In this document: piece by piece, positions 5,538-5,792 of the stretch
Layout: the number at the start of each line of letters is the position of its first letter
Numbering within the stretch: position 1 is the stretch's first letter
From: Christensenellaceae bacterium
GTDB lineage: Bacteria > Bacillota > Clostridia > Christensenellales > CAG-138
Reading direction: 5' to 3'
Assembly: GCA_963667795.1 (NCBI GenBank)
Contig: OY764017.1
Coordinates: 2,356,079 to 2,420,078, forward strand
Length of the DNA stretch: 64,000 nucleotides
Made by a program: the position numbers and the translations under genes
The notes under the pieces: generated by a model
The model's input: the letters and a program-made list of their open reading frames with translations, nothing else
Databases searched by the model: none
What the model was told of the DNA's origin: nothing

Positions 5538-5578
5538 AAAAAATCAACCTCCCGATAAAGACAGCAACGCCAAAAAAG

Positions 5579-5703
5579 CGAAACAAAAAAGAACCCCTGT
5601 CATGGTTCGCTCCTTTGGCATTGCAACGTAGAACCAAGGCGCGGATGCGCCCGGCAAATGCTGACAAATACCAAGTGGGTTAGCGAATCATCGGTGTTCC
5701 TCC
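5579..5703 (-). promoter_or_regulatory. 5' leader of the ABC-F gene, carrying a SD + 3-codon uORF (ATG ATT CGC TAA, 5691..5680) and a terminator/antiterminator-like region
   Basis: On the minus strand the sequence reads ggaggaacaccgATGATTCGCTAA. GAACC(5608-5604)/GGTTC(5595-5591) is followed by T6. An outer AGCGAA/TTCGCT pairing is followed by a second T6. The upstream TGGTTC (comp. 5631-5636) can pair with the GAACCA arm of the terminator. Confidence 0.5.
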
Positions 5704-5792
5704 ATCAAGAGATTTCTATATGAGTGTACAAAATCCGTACTGTTCTGTCAATATGCGCTATGCAGACGAACGGCGCGCAGACGAAAAAGACT

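Follow-up and report, generated by a model that had tools for sequence, protein, structure and literature searches.

Several antibiotic-resistance (ARE) genes of the ABC-F family, such as vmlR, vga(A), msr and lmo0919, are induced by antibiotic-stalled ribosomes on a short open reading frame (ORF) in the leader, which relieves attenuation. Here we analyse the leader of an Lsa-family ABC-F gene in a 64,000-nucleotide stretch of Christensenellaceae DNA (contig OY764017.1; this whole stretch is called the window, all positions refer to it, and the gene and its leader lie on its minus strand). In Bacillus subtilis vmlR, translation of the three-codon upstream ORF (uORF) AUG AUU AAC (M-I-N) is needed for induction by lincomycin (Takada et al., 2022; PMC9226507), and the same is true of the three-codon uORF of Clostridioides difficile cplR (PMC10201436). 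The uORF consensus is M-R-[I/M] in cplR, M-K-[L/Q] in vmlR2 and M-A-G-N in lsaA, and uORFs of this length are noted to be well matched to drugs that stop ribosomes directly after they initiate (Obana et al., 2023; PMC10201436). Published vmlR, cplR and vmlR2 uORFs thus contradict the first-pass annotation of this DNA, which had regarded a three-codon sensor as unusually short. In Listeria monocytogenes rli80-hflXr and lmo0919, a ribosome stalled by antibiotic on a small leader ORF prevents the terminator, as we propose here, and full-length mRNA can be made (Duval et al., 2018; PMC6310831). The hflXr leader differs in its 14-residue RLR peptide and its explicit anti-antiterminator, antiterminator and terminator; it belongs to a different gene family and has no sequence relation to ours (PMC6310831).

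The combination of a promoter, a Shine-Dalgarno (SD) sequence with a uORF and a U-tract in the window fits the published scheme of attenuation by ribosome stalling on a uORF in vmlR and cplR (PMC9226507, PMC10201436), and the leader is very probably a uORF-controlled attenuator of an ARE ABC-F gene. It resembles vmlR in having its own promoter, an SD with a three-codon uORF starting AUG AUU, a U-tract in the leader with a probable intrinsic terminator, an apical hairpin on the alternative structure, a predicted sequestration of the main SD and an ARE ABC-F product of the type acting on lincosamides, streptogramin A and pleuromutilins (PLSA), although the two leaders have no detectable sequence similarity and no common Rfam family (PMC9226507). 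With cplR it shares a Clostridia host, a uORF of the same three residues in another order (M-R-I in cplR, M-I-R here) and sequestration of the untranslated uORF in a 5' structure (PMC10201436). While the finding as such is ordinary for a specialist, its most interesting aspect is the wiring, in which the sensor ORF would double as a terminator arm and one downstream strand has two covarying partners. On balance we read the leader as a conserved, ribosome-sensing transcription attenuator in which the strand formed by the uORF and its SD would itself be the upstream arm of the terminator.

The promoter, TTGACA-17-TACACT (5751-5723; −35 box 5751-5746, −10 box 5728-5723), is sigma-70-like, with boxes at the equivalent place in the related loci, and its position puts the expected transcription start near 5717-5715. 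The uORF SD, GGAGGAA (SD1, 5697-5703), lies 5 nt before AUG AUU CGC UAA (M-I-R-stop, 5680-5691), a putative ribosome-stalling sensor, and the main SD, GGGAGG (5548-5553), lies 10 nt before the start codon of the ABC-F gene (ATG 5537). In between, 71 nt past the uORF stop, the DNA reads GAACC (5608-5604), 8 nt, GGTTC (5595-5591) and T6 (5590-5585), while AGCGAA (5611-5606) is complementary to TTCGCT (5582-5577), whose last T opens a second T6 (5577-5572). All of these motifs apart from the promoter had been listed in the first-pass annotation and are present as it described them. Where we depart from it is in how they pair.

A protein search revealed a clade at 67–95% identity to the window ABC-F, whose members come from sources labelled, for example, Christensenella or Clostridiales. 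Eleven exact-protein look-ups and a genome scan supplied the close-clade loci, and with the window there were 12 leaders, 11 of them distinct: the window; L001 (the same as L170 and L171); L081-L083; L164; L165 (the same as L166); L167 (L168 being a partial copy); L169; and L172-L174. All 12 contain GGAGG, five or six nucleotides and AUG AUY CGY URA, so that the peptide is always M-I-R, and the uORF varies only by synonymous substitutions (AUC, CGU) and by UGA in place of the UAA stop. The TTGACA promoter is likewise kept in 12 of 12, as is a U5–U7 tract, about 100 nt past the uORF AUG in the window and in every case preceded by a helix; the hairpin before it begins 83–91 nt past the AUG in all leaders except the shorter one of L172. 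Upstream genes vary among these loci (a two-component system, an ECF sigma factor, a WD40 protein, a HAD hydrolase), so that the ABC-F gene is accompanied by its promoter and leader irrespective of the neighbourhood. The genome scan produced one close relative (L001) and 79 loci at 55–63% identity with other leader types, while a single-protein metagenome scan with the generic pattern EPTNHLDM gave nothing above 65% identity among the matches listed. An exact look-up of the window protein matched no record.

How do these elements pair, then? Each leader was folded only up to its U-tract, that is, as the RNA existing at the decision point of the polymerase. In 11 of 11 sequences the result was a single long-range hairpin, with a probability of at most 0.03 for the local GAACC/GGUUC hairpin. 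SD1 is its outermost 5' arm and pairs with the strand S4 (GGGGUUC, 5597-5591) and the first residues of the U6 that follows (5590-5585, the two together spanning 5585-5597), our proposed termination point T1. GAUGAUUCGCU pairs with AGCGAACCAUC, with one A·C mismatch. The nucleotides of the uORF pair with strand S3 (GCAAUGCCAAAGGAGCGAACCAUG, 5601-5624), the few residues that follow its stop codon pair with the central part of S3, and UUGGUAUU (5667-5674) pairs with AAUGCCAA of S3, forming helix H_c. The apex is a GC-rich hairpin, CCGGGCGC-AUCC-GCGCCUUGG (5634-5654), variable in sequence and kept in structure by AU/GC/UA exchanges (alignment columns 66-71/79-85). RNAalifold arrived, unguided, at the same long-range consensus.

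The pairing of the uORF strand with S3/S4 is conserved beyond the fold of any one leader. Of its cells, 94.6% are paired, against 45–51% in slid controls, and six pairs are changed on both sides; for H_c (columns 44-54 with 98-107) the figure is 92.7%, with double changes at three pairs. In L174 the covariation is three-way, with AUU changed to AUC in the uORF, GAACC to GGACC in S3 and GGUUC to GGUCC in S4. The helix past the stop codon covaries among leaders (ACAC:GUGU, CGC:GCG, CACC:GGUG), and in L083 two changes in S3 strengthen the pairing with the uORF and weaken the local hairpin. Since MAFFT misaligns SD1 (GGAGGAAC versus GGAGGAC) and GGGGTTC versus GGGTTC, SD1:S4 and local-hairpin pairs were counted by anchor-based scripts. 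Energetically, the duplex of the 37-nt SD1-uORF strand with the S3-S4 strand of the window reaches −25.7 kcal/mol (z = −3.7), a value attained by 0 of 300 shuffles, and the 193-nt leader as a whole folds at −68.4 kcal/mol compared to −50.6 ± 4.2 for shuffles (z = −4.3).

Ribosome occupancy was represented by masking positions −15 to +16 around the uORF AUG, the +16 edge matching the 30S toeprint on vmlR. The mask costs 12–21 kcal/mol and leaves UUGGUAUU:AAUGCCAA together with the local GAACC/GGUUC hairpin, whose probability rises from about 0 to 0.7–0.96 in most leaders (0.88 in the window). In the folds, S4 is held by the SD1-proximal GAAC..CC in the free state, whereas occupation of the uORF leaves it to the local GAACC. 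UUGGUAUU starts at +18 from the AUG, just beyond the footprint of an initiating ribosome, and at this edge (+17/+18) in 10 of the 12 leaders. Comparing folds with and without the uORF, as had been suggested with the first annotation, predicts a structural switch, but one from the long hairpin to the local hairpin and not to the pairing of TGGTTC with GAACCA that was expected. The local hairpin has 5 bp and a loop of 7–8 nt, at −2.6 to −5.2 kcal/mol in 10 of the 11 distinct leaders (−4.7 kcal/mol in the window). A 5-bp hairpin with a T-run occurs at chance level, a generic scan finding 28 sites in 20 kb against 30.4 expected, and the stems of the window's clear intergenic terminators measure 10–17 bp. 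L172 has no local hairpin at all, and only the helix based on SD1 and the uORF abuts its U7.

S3 has a second partner downstream. Strand S5 (UUCGCUUUUUUGGCGUUGC, 5564-5582), which contains the TTCGCT motif and the second T6, forms with S3 an outer helix, GCAAUGCCAAA:UUUGGCGUUGC, with 91.4–92.4% of cells paired versus 31–50% in slid controls, and AU/GC double changes at two pairs in four sequences each. S3 can thus pair either with the SD1/uORF strand (5703-5667) or with S4/S5 (5597-5564), with compensatory changes in the uORF-strand and S5 helices, and because both of these covarying partners are mutually exclusive, S3 represents a true switch strand. S5 lies after the U-tract, hence S3:S5 pairing is possible only in read-through RNA. 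The hairpin called the terminator in the first-pass annotation is the one of only −4.7 kcal/mol, and the alternative pairings that are conserved and covary are those of the uORF strand with S3/S4 and of S3 with S5. A second terminator after S5 was also considered and dismissed, as the U-run there is not conserved.

These pairings suggest the following mechanism. When no drug is present, the uORF would be translated and then vacated, and S3 and S4, as they emerge, would zip onto UUGGUAUU, next onto the uORF and last onto SD1. The outcome would be one long hairpin with its base, GAAC..CC:GG..GUUC, abutting the U-tract, and RNA polymerase would stop at about 5590-5585, releasing a leader RNA of ~130 nt. 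A ribosome with bound lincosamide, streptogramin A or pleuromutilin would be arrested at the AUG, its footprint extending roughly from −15 to +16, and would hide SD1 and the uORF. Only the UUGGUAUU:AAUGCCAA helix and the marginal 5-bp hairpin (−4.7 kcal/mol) could then form, and most polymerases would therefore read through. S5 would subsequently capture S3, the mRNA would stay open and the ABC-F protein would be made. We propose this direction of the switch because the local hairpin is weak, because L172 lacks it, and because every characterised ARE ABC-F leader behaves in this way. The odds for this specific wiring, in which the uORF strand supplies the upstream terminator arm, are about even; if correct, it is probably a compact variant of the known class of uORF-controlled attenuators.

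Compared to this proposal, vmlR contains a separate anti-antiterminator SL-1, a pause hairpin, a terminator SL-3 and an SL-4 that sequesters the main SD (PMC9226507). Separate anti-antiterminator, antiterminator and terminator hairpins of this kind were not found in our leaders, where the consensus fold is the single long-range hairpin; the uORF strand pairs directly with the strand abutting the U-tract, and this partner is contested by S5. A local hairpin around the uORF, as in vmlR, was tried (CCGA:UUGG, 4–5 bp with a 16-nt loop; GGAC:GUCC in L165 only) and rejected as too weak and not conserved. In cplR there are two separate hairpins, of which the terminator extends as far as the start codon and itself conceals the main SD (PMC10201436). 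In the window, by contrast, 48 nt separate the U-tract from the ATG, and the predicted partner of the main SD is the leader's 5' end.

Several observations speak against the proposed mechanism. Statistically, the covariation is modest, as it comes from 11 distinct but related sequences, and relatedness by itself can carry such counts past the shuffle control used. The local GAACC/GGUUC hairpin, too, is conserved and covaries in L174, where it reaches −7.8 kcal/mol, and it could be the functional terminator. Further, a 5–6-bp helix adjoins the U-tract in both states, so the difference in termination has to rest on total hairpin stability rather than on presence or absence of a hairpin, except in L172. 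The main SD stays paired in both states in the thermodynamic folds, which leaves room for an additional translational layer. Finally, termination at T1 does not explain what the strongly covarying S3:S5 helix is for.

The covariation of S5 would be explained if the long S3:S5 hairpin (5624-5564) with the U-rich stretch behind it were the regulated terminator, T2, of a vmlR-like three-hairpin scheme. In that case UUGGUAUU:AAUGCCAA with the apical hairpin would be an antiterminator left free by a ribosome stalled at the start codon, and the U6 at 5590-5585 would serve mainly as anti-SD of SD1. The strong covariation of the S3:S5 outer helix, the placement of UUGGUAUU at the footprint edge in 10 of 12 leaders, the CGUUUUU or UGCUUUUU found after the outer helix in several relatives and the apical hairpin that the vmlR antiterminator likewise has all agree with such a scheme. 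We nevertheless consider it unlikely, since the U-run after S5 is not conserved (UGUCUUUAU in the window, UGUCUGAA in L082, CGUACAAG in L164), while U5–U7 follows S4 in 12 of 12 leaders, and L172 has no S5 of any kind. Moreover, UUGGUAUU:AAUGCCAA is present in folds without a ribosome as well, and T2 would therefore need some additional element to be used at all. A related and rather improbable idea is a two-checkpoint device that would read the position of the ribosome on the three-codon ORF. With the uORF empty, the long uORF-based hairpin would terminate transcription at the U-tract; a ribosome at the stop codon would also cover UUGGUAUU, freeing S3 for S5 to act as a second terminator or off-lock; and only a ribosome arrested at the AUG, leaving UUGGUAUU free to hold S3, would allow escape from both checkpoints. 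If true, this would be a minimal RNA logic gate that tells initiation arrest from ordinary translation.

Could the switch work in the opposite direction? The uORF:S3 pairing might be an antiterminator or a mere mask of SDs, with occupancy favouring the local terminator, or the leader might act on the translation or stability of a constitutively made mRNA instead of on termination; by folding alone such readings would be tenable. Masking of the uORF does raise the probability of the local hairpin in most leaders, as described above, full-length folds predict pairing of both SD1 and the main SD, and the U-tract of the window can pair fully with GGAGGAAC. However, termination would not be avoided in ribosome-free RNA, because S4 is still held there in a helix abutting the U-tract; L172 would be left without a terminator, and shutting the gene off upon ribosome stalling contradicts every characterised ARE ABC-F leader (PMC9226507, PMC10201436), which makes this inverse logic quite improbable. 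Highly doubtful, too, is the wiring of the first-pass annotation, in which the local GAACC-N8-GGUUC terminator is extended by AGCGAA:UUCGCU and a stalled ribosome frees UGGUUC (5636-5631, overlapping the middle hairpin) to pair with GAACCA as antiterminator. Every motif in it exists, including the complementarity of TGGTTC to GAACCA, and the minimum free energy structure of the full-length window leader pairs GAAC of SD1 with GUUC 5634-5631, so that a classical 1:2 / 2:3 / 3:4 scheme can be drawn. Yet, of the 12 leaders, UGGUUC is restricted to that of the window and to two of its three nearest relatives, L081 and L083, the third (L082) having UGGCUC and the remaining eight no equivalent. With the uORF masked, its pairing to GAACCA is absent and the local hairpin, of only −4.7 kcal/mol, still forms at a probability of 0.88, and AGCGAA:UUCGCU cannot assist termination at the U-tract as it lies after it. 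That everything is a chance collection of features in the ordinary 5' UTR of a constitutive gene is hardly credible. Chance easily produces a three-codon ORF, and likewise a 5-bp hairpin with a T-run, but here the SD, uORF, spacing and U-tract, as well as two alternative helices, are kept, with compensatory changes, among proteins of only 67–80% identity with differing upstream genes.

The gene behind this leader (4062-5537, 491 aa) is, judging by its sequence, an ARE ABC-F of the Lsa subfamily, with Lsa proteins and not housekeeping ABC-Fs as nearest characterised relatives. It contains two linked ABC nucleotide-binding domains without a transmembrane domain, and Pfam ABC_tran matched twice on a 95%-identical homologue. 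Both Walker A (GRNGRGKTT and GKNGSGKSS), both signature (LSPGEQ and FSGGQK) and both Walker B motifs with the glutamate (LIDEPTNH and VWDEPLN) are intact. The NCBIfam Lsa model NF000167 gives 700.2 bits, which is below its curated cutoff of 750 and yet by far the best score of any model, and the general model for ribosomal-protection ABC-Fs, NF000355, gives 440.2 bits, above its cutoff of 380. Among solved structures, LsaA (7NHK) matches with 439 bits (E = 2e-130) and 46% identity end to end, followed much more weakly by VmlR (168 bits), EttA (155), YheS (146), Uup (132) and YbiT (128); by these search scores the protein lies far from EttA, Uup and YbiT and does not fall with the housekeeping ABC-Fs. 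The best named plasmid match is Lsa(E), with 57.5% identity across 100% of the length. The Lsa-type identity given at first reading thus holds, and resistance to PLSA drugs is the predicted function. For the annotation of resistance genes it is useful to know of an Lsa-family determinant, probably inducible by drugs, on the chromosome in a clade of Clostridia that are uncultured or anaerobic, and with M-I-R the few three-codon sensor uORFs gain a leader class not described before. The general picture of ARE ABC-F regulation is unchanged, and the design is ordinary for such genes. Should the proposed wiring be true, it would be a very compact attenuator with the sensor ORF as one terminator arm, and a convenient model for separating the shares of peptide and RNA pairing in uORF conservation.

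The genes lsa(E) and lsa(A) encode members of the same Lsa protein family, and their leaders have a short uORF, M-A-G-N in lsaA (PMC10201436), and a terminator. The lsa(E)-type leader is, however, unrelated to the M-I-R leader of our clade. Many Lsa-like loci at 55–63% identity (L002-L080, with the gene start mostly at 1501) share with plasmid lsa(E) (L175:180-600) a different leader class, which reads GATTGGAGTTGAAAAG-ATG-x-x-[F/I/T]-S-C-stop and thus has a six-codon uORF. In the lsa(E) leader, on pTT39_p3, the uORF encodes M-Y-N-F-S-C. The motif CUUUCUUGC/GCAAGAAAG is used twice in this class, in a hairpin that sequesters the uORF and in a separate terminator with a stem of ~12 bp, and how stalling would relieve this terminator is not obvious from the pairing scheme. 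Other Lsa-type leaders, from Paenibacillus, Brevibacillus and Shimazuella, have a start-stop 'uORF', an SD followed by ATG-TAA or ATG-TAG, ~195–222 nt upstream of the ABC-F start (L002, L013, L014, L017, L022, L028, L033, L047 and L080), at the site occupied by the three- or six-codon uORF in other leaders.

Within the window leader itself, the CU-rich segment at the 5' end, GAAAUCUCUUGA (5705-5716), is predicted by folding to act as anti-SD for the main SD region and locally also for SD1; its GAAAUCU motif is kept in most clade leaders. The predicted pairing is of AAUCUCUUGAU (5716-5705) with AUCGGGAGGUU (5556-5546, including the main SD), and comparable pairing is predicted in L083, L172, L173 and L174. 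It may provide a translational layer similar to SL-4 of vmlR. Positions 5300-6000 were compared with Rfam, allowing E values up to 10, and the only matches were chance ones to miRNA models, at no more than 21.7 bits against gathering scores of 50–100. The leader is likewise unrelated in sequence to that of cplR. Two further ORFs overlap the leader. One, of 19 codons (5603-5544), starts with AUG at 5603, 6 nt after AAGGAG, and runs through the U-tract and S5 as far as a UGA that overlaps the region of the main SD; seen in the window only and lacking in the more distant clade leaders, this ORF is probably fortuitous. The other, of 56 aa (5497-5667), was dismissed, since relatives do not have it.

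Upstream of the promoter, the window carries at 5793-6064 (minus strand) a response regulator remnant of which only the C-terminal AraC-type helix-turn-helix is left (~90 aa; ORF 5793-6041). At the equivalent position L081-L083 have a dCache/histidine kinase gene and a 264-aa receiver-AraC regulator, and the homology to L081 (90% over 5 kb) ends at window position 6064, within the gene for this regulator. The next gene, for a HAD hydrolase (6180-6794), has its own strong terminator at 6162-6138. On the other side, the order ABC-F, VanZ-like and DUF2804 (2127-3155, minus strand) is found in most clade loci, with a HAD hydrolase in third place in L172. The VanZ-like gene (3188-4075, plus strand) is convergent with the ABC-F gene, their 3' ends overlapping by 14 nt (4062-4075). 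This ABC-F/VanZ-like arrangement is present in all clade loci despite the differing upstream genes, with overlaps of ~10–38 nt in all but L169, which has none.

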